Shown piece by piece: positions 24,174 through 55,984 of a stretch of DNA of 64,000 nt; position 1 is the stretch's first letter, and every line of letters begins with the position of its first letter. Source of the stretch: Lophium mytilinum (Eukaryota); contig MU004184.1 in NCBI GenBank assembly GCA_010093605.1, forward strand, positions 2,056,801-2,120,800. Direction: 5' to 3'. A program made the translations under genes and the position numbers. The notes below the pieces were generated by a model that made no database searches, was not told the origin of the DNA, and saw only the letters and a list, made by a program, of their open reading frames with translations.

Positions 24174-25335
24174 CTTTGACGTTTCTCCTAGCAGTGCTGT
24201 TATATTCTAGGCCGATTGATTCCCAAAGATGAGGCTCGAAATGGGTTGTAATTCGGTGCTACGTTGCTCTCCAGGCAGCGGTTCTGAGTCGCACAATGAC
24301 TTCACGGACAAGAGAAAAACGAGAAAATTTTTGAGAAAATGGCATTAGAGATATATAGAGTATAGAAAGGAACATGGACAGGGAGAGACGAGAAGGATGC
24401 GACTGCAGTGAAAGAGACACGAGGGATAAAGGCTGGAACTTCAGCCGCTCTTGGCTTGCTTCATACTTGCCCGTGTCTGGCAGGCTGTTCCACGCTTGCT
24501 CGTTTACGCGAGGAATCAATACCGCTCCGTAGCGCCATGCAGCAGCGGCGGTCCCACCAAGCTCGGACGACTTTTTACGGCAAGGAGGCGGTGCACGATG
24601 GACGGGGTTTGTGGCTGGGGAGGGCGTGGTGTTGAGTCTGGCCATCTGCTTTGCCATCGGGTTTCAGATCGTGGAATCGACGCTCGGCTAAAGGGGCTCC
24701 CGCACCTATCAAATCCCCGTGCCGTGCCCTTGGGTTTGAGAAGGGCCGTGTCCCACATGAAGAATAGAAGAGCCCAAAGGTGTTCTAAGGGCACGAAGAT
24801 GGACGAAAAGGTGGCAATAGCAGCAAGAGGCCAACAAATGGGTCGCCAGGGTGGATGCATATCGTGCCGAGCCGCCCTCACTGCGTCGGCACATGGTCCC
24901 GGATTGCTTGGAGGGCGCTTAGGGTCACGTGAGGCATCCCAAAATGATGAAGGCTCGGATCGCAGCCAACCACGAGCCCGCCATCCAACCCTGCTGCACC
25001 GGGCGGGTACTTGGCACATCACAGCACGCGGATAGGCACTGCGTCGGGCGCTTCGAGCAGGCCCAAGGGCCAAGCAGGCCGATTTCGACGTCTGCCCAAG
25101 ATTCAGTAGCGGCGCGAGTACGTAGACGTGCGACTATCGAAGCTGTATGTATGTCCTGGCGACCACTGCCCCGGAACTCTCTGACACTTCATCTCTCCAG
25201 TGCCTTCCGCCTCCTGGCACACAGCTGCTGCCGCCCATCGTCATCTCCCGCCTACCTACCCCGCGATACCACGCCACGTTTGAGCCCGCACTCGCGGCGA
25301 ACATCGCGAAACCACAACCTCATCCGCCTCCAACC

Positions 25336-28300
25336 ATGGATCAACGCAGGCAGGGCCGTCCGGAAGAGGAGCTGTTTTTCCGTCCCGCTGCAGAAGCTCC
25401 CGAGACGCCCACCGTCGGGCCCCTGAGAATCAACAAGGCCTCTCCTCCGCCTCGAGTCCCCTCTGCGAGCAGCGGCAGCGATGGTGGATTCTCGCGCCCT
25501 CCTCCTATGCCAGCCTTCCCATCGCCCCCTACAAACCCTCCCACAGCTCCTCTGCCGTATCCAGATGACCGCGCTAAAGATAAAGCTCCCTCAGGGCGCC
25601 CCGTATACACACCGCTATCAGCACAGGAGCGGGCATCGCGGAACGCCACGCCTCCTGAGAATGACGAAAGACGACGACGGTCAAGCACTACGCAGCCTTC
25701 AGGGGGCTCGCCGCGCACAAAATTCAGCGCCGACGATCCGAACAGGCCTACATTGTCAGGTTACGGTCACGCACCGCGGGCGGGCGAGGGGCGCGAGGGG
25801 GCTTTTCAACCATCAAAGCTAGCAGAGAGGCGTGGGACTGTCCCAAAGCCTCTCCCAGACTCCCCAGGCCCAGAGACGCCAGAGAAGGAGAGCTTGTTCC
25901 AGAAGCAGCCTGTCCGGCAAGGCTCGGTCCCAGGAGAGGTGCCAAACCCTTATCCAGACTACCATCAACAATACTGGCCACCTCCCGGGGGAAATCCTGT
26001 TTCGCCGCGAGGTCCCGCGCCAACTCTCAAGATTCCAAACCCAACCGGTATCAACAGACTGAGTTCTACAGCATCGACCTCGACTACCAGAGCGCAGAGG
26101 GGATCACCTCCCCCTCCGGAGACCCCTATCATTCCACCCCCGAGTGGTGGTATCGAAGCTCGATTTGCAGCCGCCGGGATCGCTGGAAACTCTACACTTA
26201 CCAGTCTTCAGGCGCAGAATCTTCAGAATGCCGCGGCAGCACAGCGTAACCAGGTGTATGCAAACTCCCAGCCTAAGGCTACTGTCTCATCGCCTCCCCC
26301 AGCTCAGCAACAGCCCCCGCGAAGACCTTGGACGCCTACCGAACAGCCTGGAAGCCAGCCACATGGCCCACCGACTGTTTACCAAGGGCCAGATGAAGTC
26401 AACGATCCGCTCCCTGAACCGGTATCTGCGCCTCAGTCTGTGGCCCGATTCTCTCCACCGCCAGCAGCAAGTCAGGTGCCCCCCGAGCATCCGGTACAGC
26501 AGGACTTGTCTCGAATGCACATCCACGATGAGCCTCCCCCGGCCTATTCGAGTGTTCCACAACAACCTGCAGGGGGGATGTCGGCACAAGGCTATCCTAA
26601 TGAGAAACGCAACACCGTTATCAATCAGCCCACGCCTGCTCCTGCTGTTATGAGCGATCCCAGCGTTCAAAACCATCCTGCTTTTGCAAACGATCCTCGC
26701 CAGCCGAGCAGATCAACTCCCCAGCCCGGAGGATCGGTTGGCATGACTCCTGTCCAACACCCCAATGCCTCACCTGGGCCAGGGCCAGCTTCTCCGCCTC
26801 CACTACCGGAAGGCTGGATCGCACACCTTGATCCTGGCTCTGGGCAATACTACTATATCCATCTTCCCACACAGTCAACACAATGGGAATTCCCCAAAGG
26901 ACCCACACCGTTGAATTTAAATGAGCCCATGTCTCCCACGGGTACTTTCGTCAATCCCTTGGCTTCGCCAAGTTTTGGGCCAATGGGTGGCAAGACACCA
27001 ATGGCTTCGCCTGGATTCCCTCCACAGTCGGCCACGTATCACGGCGATATGATGAGCATGGCAGGCATTACAAGCCCAACCGCTTCAGGCTTCACGGGCC
27101 CGCCTCCAGCCGCTGGCGTCGACATGTACAAAGTTGCGCCCACCAACAATGTCTACTTTGGGCCTTATTTGAGGTACACCAATATGGATATTGAGCGAGG
27201 GTTGTGGCTTGGGTCAATTCTTCTCGTAACAAATGCACCCCAGCCCCCCACCATCCACATCCATCAAAGTTTGGATCTCTCTCCAAATCCCCGACAACTC
27301 AAGGCAAATCCTATCTTCACCCATCAGACGTGGATATTCTACAGATATGACGTGGATCTGAGAATGGAGGACGATCGCAGCGCCAAGTGGACCTATGCAA
27401 TTACGTCTCATCTTGGGTGTACGCGGTTCGAATTCTTAGTTGCGGGACGCCATGAAACAAGTTGGCGGTTCATTGCACATTCTGGCAATGACTTTGCCCT
27501 CAATGTCAACGCAAACGAGAGATCTAAGCTTGGCGGCATTGGGTTCATGTGGAAAGACATTCTCCAGAAGAACGCTGAATGTGGTGGGTTCCACGTGCAA
27601 TTAGGGTTAGGAGATCAAATCTATGCGGATCGTCTATGGAAAGATATTCCACTGCTGAAACAATGGACGGCCACAAGCGGGAAAGAGAACAGAAAGAACG
27701 CCCTATGGACAGCGAAGCATGAAGAAGAGGTTTCGCATGCCTACTTCCACTACTACACGAGCCATTTTGATCAACCGCATCTGAGAGAGGCCTTCGCTCA
27801 GATCCCACACATCCTATCTCTCGATGACCACGACATTTTCGATGGCTTCGGATCGTACCCTGAGTACATGCAATTCTCAAACATGTTCAAGAACATTGGA
27901 AGGATCGGTATCGAGATGTATCTTCTCTTCCAGCATCATACTACCCTGGAAATATTGCGAAACGTCGGTAACGACCAAGACCTGTTCACCATCACCGGAA
28001 CCGGATGGCATTTCCTCAAGTATCTAGGACCTTGTGTTGTGGTAGTTGGGCCAGATTGCCGATCGGAGCGAAATCCACATCAAGTGATGGCAGGGCCTAC
28101 GTATCAAGGAATCTTCCCCAAGGTGGCTACCCTTCCGCCCAGCGTTCAGCACTGCATCTGGATGATTCCCGTGCCCCTCATTTACCCCCGCCTGGAATCT
28201 CTAGAAACGCTGGGTAACACGGTGGCGACTGGAAAGAAAGCCGTTACTGGAACCTTCAACATGCTAGGGAAGGTGACTAGCTCTGTTGCAGGTGTCGTTG

Positions 28301-29085
28301 GCGCCAAATCGGTCGTCGGCGAAGGTTTCAGCTCTGTCAAGAAAGCTATCGGCAAGTCGGGTCTGATGAGCGGAGTCCTCAGTCCATTCGGGGATATCGA
28401 TATGCTCGACGAATTACGAGATCAATGGACGCATGAATCGAAGGTGAGCATCACGGACGCTTCGATTTTGGCTTGTATGCTGACTTTTCTCAGGATCTAG
28501 AACGCACCTACCTCATTCGGACACTGCAGGGTATCGCGCATAACAAGTCACTGCGCATGAGCTTCTTCTCCGGTGGTAAGTTCTCTATGTGTCTCTGAAA
28601 TCGATTCAATGTTAATCCATCTTTCAGGTGTTGACTGCTGTGGCGCTGGACTTGTCCATGATCCCTCAAAACCGCAAGATCACAAAACAATGTACCAGAT
28701 AGTTTCGTCATCAGTCGTGAACGCTCCACCTAGCAACTACGTCCTCCGGCTACTACACAACAACAAAGCTCTCTACATTCCCGCGAACGGACACCGCAGC
28801 ACTCACACGCCATCAGACACCAAGGAGGACATGATGGAGATCTTTACTCAAGACGTAAATGGCGCGGCTCGCGAGTTGAAGCGGCTCATGGGACGCAGGA
28901 ACTATGTCGCCTGCGTAATCTACGATCCTGAGATTGTCAACGGGACTTTCGGACAGGCAGTCCCAGGCCATGGTGGTGGAAAGCTCAGTCTCGCAGTTGA
29001 CTTTATGGTGCAGAACGACGGTCCATACGCATCGCCAATGAAGTACGGGCCCGTCATTATTCCCAGCTTGGAGTATGGTCGTTAG
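25336..29085 (+). CDS. WW-domain / PhoD-like metallophosphatase-domain protein
   Basis: WW domain LPEGWIAHLDPGSGQYYYIHLPTQSTQWEFP. PhoD-like GDQIYAD, DDHDIFDGFGSY and SGG|VDCCG. Introns ~28444-28493 and ~28576-28627. Confidence 0.88.
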
Positions 29086-50100: not shown

Positions 50101-51097
50101 ATGTACAAGCTCAAAGGCGGCACAGTGCCCCTCCCACGCTGGATCCTTGTCTTCCGCCTCCTCCAACTCATCTTCGCCGTCTTAATCATCGCGTTGACGA
50201 GCTACTCCATCTCGATCAACAAAGGCGGTCCCGTACGCGCATCCCTCTCCACCTCCATCCAGCTGCCCACTAACACCCCCACAGCTCCGCCCCGGCATTA
50301 TCGCCGTGCTCATAATCGCCATCTTAACCGTCTTCCCAATCCTAGCCTTCATCGCCCCCCTGCACATCGCGCAACGCCGCATCTACGACCCCCGCATCGC
50401 GCTGATCGGAGACGGCATCGCAACGTTGTGGTGGTTGGGCGCGTTTGCGGCGCTGGCGGTGTATCAGCGGATTTTCCATAGCTACGCGTACGATTACGAT
50501 AACAACTTTAAGCGGGACGAGAGGGCGCTGGAGGAGCGAGCTCTTTACTATGCCGGATGGAGGTGTGATGGGGGACGCTGTCGGCGGGCGTGGAGAACGG
50601 GGACGGCGGCGACGGTGTTTGCGGCGATTGAGTTGTGAGTTTTTCTTTTTGGCTAGGGCTGGTCGGGACTAATGCAGTGTTGTAGTCTGCTCTTCCTCTT
50701 GACGACTGTGCTCTTCCTCTACTACTACCACGCCCACATGGCCGGAGTTTCCGTATTGGGAGTATCCAGACACCACAAGGGCGGCCTTGAGGCTGGGGCA
50801 GTTGGAGCGGGGGTTGGTGCTGGAGCTGGTGCGCATCATGAGAGCCACGCTATGAACGAAATGCCTGCGAATACCGGCCCAACAGGCGTCGGTGCTGGCA
50901 ATAGTGTGGGTGGTCACCACAACGGCGGATCTATCGGTCACCACAATGGCCAATCCGTGGGCCAACATAACGGCCCAAGTGGTCCGGGGATGAATGGCGG
51001 TACTGGTGTCGTCGGGAATGCTGGAGACTATGGGGGACATAATGACATACCGCACCCGGATCGCCCGCCGCGTGAGGGCGCGTATGGCGGGATGTAG
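50101..51097 (+). CDS. MARVEL-like four-TM membrane protein with Gly/His/Asn-rich tail
   Basis: RLLQLIFAVLIIALTSY, DGIATLWWLGAFAALA and TAATVFAAIEF. Two introns (~50233-50284, ~50635-50685). Confidence 0.75.
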
Positions 51098-51628
51098 GAG
51101 TGAGTAGGAAAGAGTTTTCCAGGTTGAAGACTGCGAACTTTATGAGAAAGGGTTTTGAGAGGGTCATGATGAAGAAGTATTGCTCAAAGTAGCTTTTGAG
51201 GTTTTAGTCTATGATAATATCCCCTTCAAGAACAGTACGGGGTTTTGTTCAAGTCGATGACTAGAGGAAGAACGAAAAAGGATAATTGAGAGTATGAGAA
51301 TTGGAGAATTGCCATTTTGGGGCGACGACTAGGGGACACTCGAAACTGGCTATATTTATGTGATTGGAACGGCAGTTATCACGTGATATCCACGTGCATA
51401 TTGGAAATTGCCAGCCTTGGAGCAGCAATCAATACCCTGAAGCGCTAGAGAGGACGAGCCTGGACTTTTATGTCATGTAGGGATCCTTGAGCTTCAGTGC
51501 TTACCTTCAGGGCTGAGAGTTAATAGGCCATGCTAAACATATGTAGCTGATAAATTACGACTGAGTTTTTTTCGGCCTATTTGGATAGCCGCAAGTGCCG
51601 AAACAAGTCCTGAGAGCCGCTTGAAGAT

Positions 51629-51752
51629 GCCCAGCGCCAGGAATGCGACACTGGGCCTTCAAACGTACGATAGCTTGAAGAAATTTGATACCAAAGGTAG
51701 GTTTGGGCGACATTGCAGGCTCACCACATCGGAGCCACTAAACTACACCGGG
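51629..51752 (-). tRNA. Degenerate tRNA-like copy C with a 51-nt GT-AG intron
   Basis: Acceptor CCCGGTG/CGCTGGG, D-arm GTTTAGTGGC, intron GTGAGC..AAG 51724-51674, T-arm CCAGTG TCGCATT CCTGG. The anticodon stem does not pair well after splicing. Confidence 0.55.
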
Positions 51753-51796
51753 TTACAAAGCGCAGAGAACGGATCTCTGCAAAGAGCAAAAATCAA

Positions 51797-51931
51797 GTCC
51801 GGCGCCAGGATTCGAACACTGGGTCTTGGGATTCCAGTTGGCATAACTGTCCCTTCGTAAGGGCTTAGCGTGTGGTCGCGAGGGGTTATGACTGCTGCCT
51901 TACCATATTATAGCCACTAAACCACACCGGA
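51797..51931 (-). tRNA. tRNA-like copy B (anticodon GTT) with a 51-nt spliceosomal-type intron plus an 11-nt canonical-position tRNA intron
   Basis: After removing 51903-51853 (GTAAGG..GCTAAG..AAG): TCCGGTG TG GTTT AGTGGCTA TAAT A TGGGA CAGTTA[TGCCAACTGGA]A TCCCA AGAC CCAGTG TTCGAAT CCTGG CGCCGGA C. T5 downstream. Confidence 0.75.
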
Positions 51932-51981
51932 TTTAAGTTTGCTAGGAATAAATCACCACAAGACAGTTAGTTAAAAAAAGT

Positions 51982-52158
51982 GTCCGGCGCCGGGAATCGA
52001 CTGTTTTGTTAGAGAAAGGTACACAGACGGCGGAAGGACTCTTACACTCCGGGTCTCCCTCTTGAAGGGAGCTGCCCGCTGTGTTAGTCTTTGTGCAGCT
52101 ATTGATTGTTGTTGCCTCCGGATGGACTTACGGAATTATGCCACTAAACCACACCGGA
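51982..52158 (-). tRNA. tRNA-like copy A (anticodon TTC, Glu-like) with two spliceosomal-type introns
   Basis: After removing 52131-52072 and 52045-52001: TCCGGTG TG GTTT AGTGGCA TAAT T CCCTC CCTTCAA GAGGG AGAC CCGGAG TTCGATT CCCGG CGCCGGA C (72 nt). T7 tract at 51979-51973. Confidence 0.8.
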
Positions 52159-53249
52159 TTCCGCTGCGTGAAGAATAAATGGATACTTGAGTAGAGATTG
52201 TGCTTACTGGTCTGCTTGTCGGTGGAAGCAGATGATTCAGGATTGTACGTGCAGTACTGAGGCGAAGGGCTATTGATAATGAGCTCGACAGCAGGAGGCG
52301 TTCGTGTGTGGGGACACACGTACCAGGTAATCACACCAAAGAGATTCCAATTCATGTGTAGGTGGAGGTGAGAAGGATACCGTGTCATATAGAAATGTGT
52401 AGACTCTGGCAAGAATCATGAAGGGTTGAGAGCTGAGTTCGAGTTAAGCATCCGGATCACTCAGCGTGCAAAGAACTGGCGATGCTTCGAAGATGCGTGG
52501 CAACGGCTGTCAAGTGACGGATGCAAGGCGGAAAAAGTAAGGATGGTGGACCGTGGCAGTCTGCAGGATGGAAGTGTTCTGATTTGTGAGGGACCAATCT
52601 ACTGCCGGGGGAAACGGAGAACCCCTGCGGCGGTTGGTGAATGTCTCTGCAACTACTCCCATCCGCCATTGGCATTATTGGCAGAGTGACGATTAGTGGC
52701 GTGCGTCGAGACCGTTAAGAGCGACGCAGCCATCACCTCAGAGTAGCCTTTGCCAGCGCCATCGCCTTCGCCTTCTTCTGCCGCTGTTTCGAAATGGAGC
52801 ATCTTTGAAGGCCAGAACGATCGACCTCGGGGTTGATATGTAGAATGGCGGAGGGCAGAGATTGGACGCGGCACAGAGCGGGCGCCTTATCTGTGAAGGA
52901 TGGCATCGCATCCCCACACTGGCCAGGGTCTGTTGGAACGACTCCGACGTCGACCCTCCACGCCCTTTTCTTAGGGCTCCTCCAGCATGCGCCAAGGCAG
53001 TCGTTACGCTACTGCACTTAGAGAGCGTATGTGCAATCCGGTCCTCTTCAGTTGCACCCCGCCGCAACCCTCACCAGCCACCACGACGCCTGCAAGTCTT
53101 CAGCTCGTAGTAACATGCCGTAGTATTTAGCTACGCAGCTACGCGCCTGTGACTCCAAGCCCTACGAACCGCCCTATATCTATCCCGTCCGCCCGAACGT
53201 CGGGATTCCTAGAGGTATGCCGATACTGGACGCCTGGTAGCCTCGCAGA

Positions 53250-55984
53250 ATGCCTCGACCGAAGAAACCCGGCGCTGCTGAGCCCAAAAAGCGTTCGCGC
53301 AATGGCTGCTGGTATAGACCCTGCGCGCGGGACGCTCGCCCCCATTTATAAATTAAGGGACCAGTCTGACGTTGCTTATAGGCCCTGCAAGGCACGGAAG
53401 GTGAAATGGTAAACTTCCCATATTGTATTACCCCGCCCAATATCATAGTAACCCTCTCCCAGTGGCGAGGAGAAGCCGCGCTGTCTCAATTGCGAGCGTC
53501 AGGGCGAAGCTTGCGACTATAGCATCCGTCTCAATTGGAATGGCCGCTCAAAGAAGAGCGCAGACACTTCGGGGTCTGAAACTCCCCAGAGTGGCACCAG
53601 TAGCCCGTATACCTCGACCTTCTCCCAATCCGACATCTTCGCGCCGCCCGCGTATACCCATACCCATACCCCTTCGCCCGTATCTGGGCCACCTCCGCAT
53701 ATCTTCCACCATGCGAGAGGACATTCGAATACATCTGCGCCCAGCCCCGAGGTCTCCATGATTGATCCAGAGTTGATGAGGATCAGTCAGAGCCAGACAC
53801 AACCCATCATGGCTGCGTACGACACGTTGGAGATGCCGAGACGAGGGAACCCGACCTCTGCACCCATTGACAATCGTCTTCAGCAAGTGCAGTATCGAGG
53901 TAACATAGACTACCCGTCACCTACTGCCTCGAGTTTTGATGGCGGGAGTTATGGAGGAGGCTACATGTCTAGCGGGACTATTGACTCGCCCGCTTCTCCT
54001 CCTGCAATGCCACCCCCTGGGCGAAATATGTTCTCGCACGACTCGGCGACTGGTGGGGCTAGGCCTTACCCAGAGATGTCTGAACTGTCTGGACACCAAG
54101 CTAAGCGCCAGAAACGAAGCCATTCTAGGGACTCTCCAAATGTACTCCCCGGGCCTGGAAAGCAGGATAGTAGATGGGAGAAGGGAAGCGGGACTCTGTC
54201 TGTTGCAGACGCATTTTCGCCGAATTCAGGTCCGCTTACCCCTTACAGCCCATTTCAGGGTAATCCTTTGACGCCCGTTTCTTCAGTCGCCTCGGAAGAC
54301 AGCGGCATGCGTAATGGCCCTGGCCCTACTACTAGCCCGTACCCTCCACCGGATCTTCGTCGACTTTCCGTCAACTCTCTGCTCACTGGCCCTCCGGGTG
54401 ATAATCCGTCTGGATGGAATACCGACGTGCATGGCAGACATTATCCAGTTGCCGACTCAAGCACAACTACATATGGATACGATGTTGGAAATCCTGACCT
54501 AGATACTCTGAAGAACGACGATTTGAATGCTATCGCTGTATTCAGTCCTCCTGTTGGTAGTGCCGGGTTTGCAACCGACAGTCAATTCGATTCGCAAACC
54601 GAGAACGGCTTTGGCGACCGATCTAAAGATATCGCGTTCGAAAAAGGGGGATACTATGCAAAACCAGTTCCTATAAAAATCTCGAGATCACTGGAGCCAC
54701 TTCCAAGGCTCTTGCACGACAATCCAATGAACCTCCTATACTTTCATCATTTCCTGAACCACACAGCTAGGATATTAGTCCCGCATGATTGCGAGCAAAA
54801 TCCTTTCAGGAGCATTCTCCCACGTAGTGAGTTAGACTCCTTCAATGAGTAATCCCTAGCTGACCCGAACAGTGGCTGTCCAAAACGAGACCGTTCTCTG
54901 CTTGCTGTTAGCCTTTTCTGCGAGCCATCGCGCGCGTCTCTTAAATCATCCCGAGCCAGCTAATCGAATAGCCGTCTGGGTGCAGGATGTGTTTCCCAAG
55001 CTCCGACAGGATCTAAATAGCAACAACGAAATCTCCAATGCCACACTTACTACAGCCATCATGCTTGCATCTTTGGAGATAATCTCACCAAACACCTTCG
55101 AAGTTCCAATATCCTGGCAGAACCACCTCACCGTCGCTCGCCAAATGATCATTGCTCGTGGAGGGCCAAAGACTGTGCAGCGTAGCGACCCAACAGCCTC
55201 GTTCTTAGGACGTTGGTTTGCGTATCTCGATGTCCTCGGCAGTCTAAGCGGTGGCAAGAACGACCTTCCCCTGGATTCGTCTTACTGGTCCGACGACGAC
55301 TACGATACAGACGAAGACTATCAAATCGACTGCTTGCTTGGATTTACGAGTCGCTGTATTGGTATTCTCGCGAGGATTGCCGAACTTGCAAAGCAGTGTG
55401 AGAAGATCCGTTTTGACGAAGATGGCAACGTCCGAGAAGGGTGGAAGCCTACCCCCGAGATCCTTGAAAAGGCCGACAAGATCAAGGAAGACCTAGCAGA
55501 GGGCCGCGATCACGTGTACAAGGGCTGCAATCATCGAAGCGCGGATAACTCCGAGAGCGAAGCTGGTTGGGACGCTCTGGAGATTTACGCAACGAATGAA
55601 GCTTTCCACTGGGCTGGACTGATCCACCTCTGTCGCAGAGTGTTGGGGAAGCCGGCAACTGATCCAGACGTCCAGAATGCCATACGAGAGATCGTTGGAA
55701 ATCTGTATAAGGTCCGTCGCGGAAGCACGGCTGAAGCGTGTCTCCTGTTCCCGATGTTCACCGCGGGCTGCGATGCCATCGACGCAACCCAGAGGAACAA
55801 GATCATGGAGAGATTGAAGAGCGTGGAGGGATTTGGAATGACTCAGGTATGTTGCGAAGATTACCGTCGCAAAGGGGAATGACTAACGAGGTTCTAGATC
55901 CACAAAGCACGACAACTTATGCAAAAGGTCTGGGACACTGGAAAGCCGTGGGAAACGTTGGTGTATGGAGAGTTTTTGGGTTGA
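53250..55984 (+). CDS. Zn2Cys6 transcription factor with Fungal_trans_2-type C-terminal domain
   Basis: MPRPKKPGAAEPKKRSRNGCW|PCKARKVKC|GEEKPRCLNCERQGEACDY, then YFHHFLNHTARILVPHD, WFAYLDVLGSLS and CLLFPMFTAGC. Confidence 0.92.

Follow-up and report, generated by a model that had tools for sequence, protein, structure and literature searches.

The locus considered here raises the question of whether an RNA with the shape of a tRNA can be put together by the spliceosome and, if so, whether the product is a tRNA at all. An earlier note, made from the sequence alone, had described on the minus strand of a 64-kb window (the whole stretch of DNA analysed) a tRNA-shaped gene interrupted by two inserts with fungal splicing signals, and had proposed it to be a spliceosome-matured tRNA or tRNA-like RNA. 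Its coordinates and segment lengths proved exact on the minus strand: three exons (27, 26 and 19 nt) are separated by two inserts (60 and 45 nt). Exon 1 (27 nt, 52132–52158) holds the 5′ strand of the acceptor stem, the D arm and the first two bases of the anticodon stem. Intron 1 (60 nt, 52072–52131) follows at tRNA position 28/29. Exon 2, a micro-exon of 26 nt (52046–52071), contains the rest of the anticodon arm with its TTC loop, a 4-nt variable loop and the 5′ strand of the T stem plus an extra base. Intron 2 (45 nt, 52001–52045) lies at position 53/54 and splits the T loop, interrupting the B-box region in the DNA, while exon 3 (19 nt, 51982–52000) provides the remainder of the T loop, the 3′ strands of the T and acceptor stems and a discriminator C. 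The donor, branch and acceptor signals attributed to the inserts can be read directly: GTAAGT, ACTAAC and CAG in intron 1, and GTAAGA, TCTAAC and CAG in intron 2.

The fold proposed for the joined exons was also recovered. The ARAGORN drawing shows a 72-nt cloverleaf with a 7-bp acceptor stem, an anticodon stem formed over junction 1, a 7-nt loop containing TTC, and the T loop TTCGATT formed over junction 2. When the variable loop is given 5 nt, the T stem pairs at only three of its five positions, so one bulged extra base has to be placed in its 5′ strand. The D stem is weak (G-U, U-A, U-A, U-U), and the cloverleaf, at -18.8 kcal/mol, is not the minimum-energy fold (-29.2 kcal/mol).

The inspection of a 7389-letter Logan contig from the public run X1 showed both inserts to be removed at exactly the junctions for which a search in RNA-derived sequence had been suggested. 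The contig covers positions 51000–53000 with 0 differences from the window apart from four skipped segments: 52072–52131 (60 nt), 52001–52045 (45 nt), 51853–51903 (51 nt) and 52270–52323 (54 nt). Exon 1 is thus contained in the contig piece 52132–52269, and exon 2 forms a piece of its own (52046–52071). The two junctions of this tRNA-shaped unit, 52132/52071 and 52046/52000, are unambiguous (‘both’ = 0); the borders of 51853–51903 have an ambiguity of 2 nt and were placed so as to give GT-AG. All four segments read CT..AC on the plus strand, and therefore GT..AG on the minus strand, and their lengths fall between 45 and 60 nt. Their donors (GTAAGT, GTAAGA, GTAAGG and GTACGT) are GTRNGT-like 5′ splice sites. 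The fungal branch consensus is CTRAY, located shortly before a YAG acceptor; the combinations ACTAAC..CAG and TCTAAC..CAG are found in introns 1 and 2, and weaker signals in the 51-nt intron (GCTAAG or CTTAC, with AAG as the acceptor) and the 54-nt intron (CTCAT..TAG). Four gaps on the same strand, all GT-AG and of fungal intron size, in an otherwise identical sequence suggest splicing and are hard to explain otherwise. The type of run X1, the one public run found to contain this stretch, was guessed as RNA, and the evidence consists of one run and one contig, which carries no information on strand, ends, abundance or polymerase. With the contig taken as cDNA-derived on this basis, we regard it as nearly certain that the inserts are U2-type spliceosomal introns that are actually removed.

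The contig also shows that the tRNA-shaped unit does not stand alone. The 54-nt intron (52270–52323, minus strand, GTACGT..TAG) is located 112 nt before the unit, in sequence that is not tRNA-like, and downstream of the unit the contig runs on through further units and the spacers between them. A T7 run resembling a Pol III terminator lies 2 nt after the unit (51973–51979), and a T5 run lies 4 nt after the next one (51788–51792). Pol III stops at such T runs, and the contig reads through both. This and the upstream intron speak for a long RNA made by Pol II and against an isolated tRNA gene transcribed by Pol III. Since the contig is unbroken at each unit border, at least some molecules are uncut there, and any cleavage must be incomplete. 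The description given in the earlier note therefore stands for the anatomy of the unit, and has to be amended in that the unit is one of three inside a longer spliced transcript that has an intron of its own upstream.

The three units are arranged in tandem on the minus strand, all of them tRNA-Glu-like; the one described above comes first and is referred to below as unit 1. An 18-nt motif at their 5′ ends occurs three times in the 64-kb window, where 0.03 copies would be expected, and a motif from the 3′ part of the units occurs twice, against 0.09 expected, so the pattern of units is not due to chance. Unit 2 spans positions 51797–51931 (minus strand). Its exon 1 (28 nt, 51904–51931) has a body that differs from that of unit 1 at one of 25 aligned positions, and the intron that follows (51 nt, 51853–51903; GTAAGG donor, GCTAAG or CTTAC as branch-like motif, AAG acceptor) lies at position 28/29, a position thus common to units 1 and 2. 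Exon 2 (56 nt, 51797–51852) contains the rest of an anticodon arm different from that of unit 1, followed by the variable loop, the T arm, the 3′ strand of the acceptor stem and a discriminator C. Unit 3 (51629–51752, minus strand) is a degenerate copy. Both halves of the body are kept, and the acceptor and T stems show compensatory changes; the T loop is altered to the point that its motif is lost, no anticodon loop is present, and the 68-nt middle part is retained, unspliced, in the contig. The 3′ part of unit 3 (51629–51658, minus strand) folds on itself as an 11-bp hairpin that competes with the cloverleaf, because the 5′ strand of its T stem resembles the 5′ strand of its acceptor stem.

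A search for further decayed units upstream of unit 1 and downstream of unit 3 gave nothing significant, the best alignments being equalled by 33 of 300 and 24 of 300 shuffles. Downstream of unit 3 (51470–51545, minus strand), a stretch resembling a D arm precedes a GGTAAGC donor. It may possibly be what is left of a fourth unit, its alignment being non-significant (24 of 300 shuffles match the score).

The array lies in a gap of 2.6 kb between a gene for a MARVEL-domain protein and, on its far side, a gene for a Fungal_trans_2 transcription factor found by the Pfam scan, both on the plus strand. Three of the nine stop-to-stop frames scanned around the gap gave Pfam family matches, and the neighbouring frames tested inside it gave none. 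The MARVEL-domain gene (50657–51097) ends at 51097, beside the array; it converges on the array, and the 3′ ends of the two transcripts thus probably overlap. Its own 3′ end codes for a low-complexity tail rich in Gly, His and Asn. A TATAAAT sequence was noted at 53344–53350 (minus strand), roughly 1 kb before the first intron. It may belong to the promoter of the minus-strand non-coding RNA, which would then be transcribed divergently from the transcription-factor gene. Elsewhere in the window, the longest open reading frame (25147–28500) codes for an Aso-1/WW-domain protein, with a gene span of 25147–29082 on the plus strand. A search found its best named relative, in Mytilinidion resinicola, to be 97% identical, and tblastn aligned 1160 identical residues out of 1212, with small indels. 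The window is therefore from a wood-inhabiting ascomycete of the Dothideomycetes that is closely related to this species.

The prediction that standard tRNA finders would miss the genomic form of unit 1 was borne out. ARAGORN found no tRNA in the genomic window with a standard run or when introns in the anticodon loop were allowed, nor in the region itself with lowered thresholds. Rfam models run at gathering scores over the whole window gave 0 matches. A permissive Rfam search (E up to 10) of positions 51500–52450 returned no tRNA, only a chance-level match to HOTAIR_2 (E 4.9), and the permissive search of positions 52300–53800 returned nothing. Once the introns skipped by the contig were removed, ARAGORN at its default settings called a 72-nt tRNA-Glu(ttc) that coincides with unit 1; when only one insert was removed, or none, no call was made. 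With ARAGORN, a tRNA-Glu(UUC) is thus called on the spliced form alone. Of 2401 variants in which each border was shifted by up to 3 nt, 112 were still called tRNA, which means that ARAGORN is not a sharp test of the exact borders of intron 1. For most of these 112 variants the call was Leu(caa), owing to a separate hairpin within exon 2.

Comparison of the units indicates which parts of the sequence have been kept. In the bodies of units 1 and 2, 24 of 25 positions of the 5′ part agree, as do 24 of 28 of the 3′ part (86–96%; z about 12; 0 of 500 shuffles). The sequences around and within them, in contrast, are at chance level: z is 0.1 for the 5′ flanks, -0.6 for the 3′ flanks and 1.0 for the two introns at position 28/29. 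Similarity among the four introns and the insert of unit 3 was likewise at chance in ten pairwise tests (in the lowest case 21 of 300 shuffles reached the score), and no second copy of any of the introns was found elsewhere in the 64-kb window.

Several stem pairs are changed in a compensatory manner. Units 1 and 2 have T-A at acceptor pair 1:72, where unit 3 has C-G. At the third pair of the T stem, unit 1 has G-C and the other two units have A-T. In the anticodon stem all five pairs are changed on both sides between units 1 and 2, with pairing kept, and two of these pairs in each unit cross a splice junction. This covariation rests on three paralogues in one genome, and the five changes in the anticodon stem could represent a single module swap, which would leave about three independent events. 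Conserved tertiary nucleotides of tRNAs include U8, A14, G18 G19, T54 T55 C56, A58 and the pair G53-C61. All of them are present in units 1 and 2, in which direct reading also finds G15, A21, C48 and the T-loop sequence TTCGA; those of the T loop are lost in unit 3. The fold rebuilt in the spliced RNA is therefore likely, as far as sequence comparison goes, to be under selection. The conserved parts are the stack of acceptor and T arms and the elbow, while the anticodon arm has been exchanged wholesale. This stack and elbow are what RNase P, RNase Z and the CCA enzyme recognise. A conserved stack and elbow combined with a free anticodon arm would be the pattern expected of a substrate of these enzymes, and not that of a decoder.

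The exchanged anticodon arm of unit 2 has features of its own. In the minimum-energy fold of the spliced unit, it consists of a 5-bp stem and a second 5-bp helix separated by a 3-nt bulge on the 3′ side and closed by a 5-nt loop. Both this fold and ARAGORN with lowered thresholds point to a candidate insert of 11 nt (51833–51843, minus strand) at position 37/38, with a geometry like that of SEN substrates, which would be removed in a second stage. With these 11 nt treated as the insert, position 32 pairs with the third-last insert base, which is the geometry of eukaryotic endonuclease substrates. Unit 2 may thus be a ‘twin’ substrate of two splicing systems, with a spliceosomal intron and a candidate endonuclease-type intron at 37/38. 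Only this 11-nt segment fits position 37/38; the introns at 28/29 and 53/54, with their spliceosomal signals, are not of the endonuclease type. Spliced unit 2 received no call from ARAGORN at default settings; with lowered thresholds it was called either Asn(gtt) or an intron-bearing Ser(gga).

The explanation we favour, to which we give an even chance of being right, is that the units are selected tRNA-like processing modules within a spliced non-coding RNA, most likely a product of Pol II. Modules derived from tRNA-Glu and arranged in tandem would be interrupted by U2-type introns within a minus-strand non-coding Pol II transcript. Splicing brings their halves together again, allowing the acceptor, anticodon and T arms to form along with the elbow between D loop and T loop; the introns would in this way make formation of the cloverleaf dependent on prior splicing. 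Small tRNA-like RNAs are then predicted to be released from the long RNA by excision of the spliced modules, which would not serve as standard decoding tRNAs. The array also carries Pol III-type signals, namely an A box, the intact B box of unit 2, the T runs and the sequence ATTTATTC, so transcription by Pol III is still conceivable. This 8-mer is found in identical form upstream of unit 1 (52173–52180) and of unit 2 (51946–51953), at the same offset of -22 to -15 (minus strand). A same-offset run of 8 nt was reached by 28 of 20000 shuffles, and the pair could have been left over from the duplication or serve as an upstream element of the Pol III type.

A distinctly less probable alternative, although the most serious of those weighed, is that the units are neutral relics: old tandem tRNA-Glu pseudogenes in an intergenic region subject to pervasive transcription, which gained introns that are duly spliced while the cloverleaf has no function. 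The degenerate and unspliced state of unit 3 would fit such a history, as would the departures from a normal tRNA at position 33 and in the T and D stems, and the absence of contig breaks at unit borders. The search for relatives points in the same direction. One metagenome scan with the shared 18-nt 5′ motif yielded seven loci, all seven unrelated to the array; ARAGORN found a tRNA in five of them (three Val, one Gly and one intron-bearing Met) and none in the other two. Decay does not explain, however, why bodies that are 86–96% identical should lie beside introns and flanks that cannot be aligned, nor does it account for the compensatory changes in the stems. It also leaves unexplained the presence of three introns within module sequence totalling about 156 nt, one of the positions being common to two units.

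It is unlikely, in our judgement, that unit 1 is a decoding tRNA-Glu(UUC) that needs the spliceosome for its maturation, whether its precursor is made by Pol II or, as for S. pombe U6, by Pol III. If it were, unit 2 may be a tRNA that requires the spliceosome first, at 28/29, and the tRNA endonuclease afterwards, at 37/38. Several observations speak for a decoder: the default ARAGORN call of tRNA-Glu(ttc) once the unit is spliced; the retention of the nucleotides for tertiary interactions and of a 4-nt variable loop; trappings reminiscent of Pol III, namely the T7 and T5 runs, the A-box-like D arm and the shared 8-mer at -22; and the extended anticodon helix with its 3-nt bulge in spliced unit 2, which resembles an endonuclease substrate. 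Against these stands position 33, where unit 1 has C in place of the near-universal U. A regular 7-nt anticodon loop with U33 is in fact found in none of the units, unit 2 having A33 and unit 3 no loop at all. A regular 5-bp T stem is not found either, each of the three units having one base too many in its 5′ strand (A, T and T, respectively), and the D stem of unit 1 is weak. Further, unit 3 is degenerate, the cloverleaf of unit 1 is not its most stable fold, intron 2 divides the B box of unit 1 in the DNA, the T7 run after this unit is read through by the contig, which is also unbroken at the unit borders, and unit 2 combines a Glu-type body with a foreign anticodon arm and A33. The original phrase ‘spliceosome-matured tRNA or tRNA-like RNA’ is thus upheld as regards splicing of both inserts at the predicted junctions, but not as regards the fold of a decoding tRNA; with no U33 and a bulged T stem, its second half, ‘tRNA-like RNA’, is the better fit. 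If the decoding tRNA were nonetheless real, the two nuclear splicing systems would no longer be as separate as textbooks have them, and the supply of a tRNA would be coupled to Pol II transcription and splicing.

The two remaining alternatives together claim only a very small share of the probability. The exons might be micro-exons of a small protein-coding gene, their likeness to a tRNA being secondary, but this is most improbable. A stop-free frame of 104 codons does run through the spliced minus strand (52415–51945) and crosses the three upstream junctions, and with them three introns. Yet the 45-residue peptide encoded by the exons has no relative among proteins of 80–2000 residues, no Pfam family was matched in the neighbouring stop-to-stop frames tested in the gap, coding does not explain the tRNA-specific pairing and tertiary positions, and no convincing open reading frame was apparent in the stretch covered by the contig. 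The weakest alternative is an artefact, in which run X1 would represent the DNA of a strain without the inserts, or a mis-assembly of it: the type of the run was guessed (‘RNA?’) and only contigs are available, but four skipped segments that are all GT..AG, on one strand, 45–60 nt long and provided with branch-like motifs, in 2 kb that otherwise show 0 differences, make it scarcely credible.

What sets this locus apart is that a tRNA-shaped RNA can form only after spliceosomal splicing, with the junctions present in RNA-derived sequence. If the modules are functional, as in the explanation we favour, tRNA-like RNAs would join snRNAs and rRNA as structured non-coding RNAs with mRNA-type introns, and the array would offer a natural case of a tRNA fold gated by splicing. 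A class of fungal genes overlooked by tRNA finders would also be implied. Even if they are neutral, the array would be a clean example of repeated intron gain, leaving micro-exons of 26–27 nt, in a structured RNA. The earlier note knew of no spliceosomal introns in tRNAs, and our search of the full-text literature, with subscription journals mostly outside its scope, agrees with it in having found no published report of a spliceosomal intron in a tRNA or tRNA gene. Passages in two papers (PMC12530127, PMC13149111) describe tRNA splicing as independent of the spliceosome, and tRNA introns and spliceosomal introns as unrelated types.

The nearest precedents are found in other structured RNAs. 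Titles in the reference list of PMC5855946 (Tani & Ohshima 1989, 1991; Frendewey 1990; Takahashi 1993, 1996) document mRNA-type introns in fungal snRNA genes, namely U6 of S. pombe and U1, U2 and U5 of Rhodotorula, and the same list includes work on the interaction of the S. pombe U6 intron with the B-box promoter element. Like those of the array, these introns are short, of the GT-AG type and removed by the spliceosome, and they interrupt small structured RNA genes with Pol III-type signals. Their hosts, in contrast, are components of the spliceosome, whereas the host here is tRNA-shaped, arranged in tandem, interrupted by up to two introns per 72-nt module and contained in a longer spliced transcript. 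The introns of spliceosomal snRNAs are usually explained by mis-directed reverse splicing.

Ectopic spliceosomal introns are also recorded in the rDNA of ascomycetes, in a statement in PMC8527467 that cites Bhattacharya et al. 2000. They resemble the introns of the array in being spliceosomal introns that interrupt a structural RNA and are removed by the machinery of the host, in their case from an RNA that is not a Pol II product. Unlike in the array, the host is rRNA, no micro-exons are formed and no small cloverleaf is restored. Among tRNA genes proper, introns cut by the tRNA splicing endonuclease lie at 37/38 in eukaryotes, and BHB introns at other positions occur in archaea and in Cyanidioschyzon (PMC3978253, which describes genes with several BHB introns, PMC12530127 and PMC13149111). 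These are interrupted tRNA genes too, sometimes with several introns and at unusual positions, but endonuclease-cut introns are recognised by RNA structure, whereas the array introns at 28/29 and 53/54 carry GT-AG and branch signals.

As to the origin of the introns and the fate of the modules, two further systems offer a comparison. The introner-like elements of Dothideomycetes are introns gained recently, through insertions that do not disturb the host sequence. They occur in the same fungal class, but the introns of the array are dissimilar to one another and have no further copy in the 64-kb window. In the MALAT1 mascRNA type, a tRNA-shaped module in a Pol II lncRNA is released by RNase P and RNase Z, and the half comprising the acceptor and T arms is conserved while the anticodon arm is not. 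Elements of this type are known from vertebrates as single modules without introns. Both they and, as far as the contig shows, the array place tRNA-shaped modules in a long transcript; those of the array are in tandem and interrupted by introns, and their cleavage from the transcript is a prediction of the explanation favoured here.
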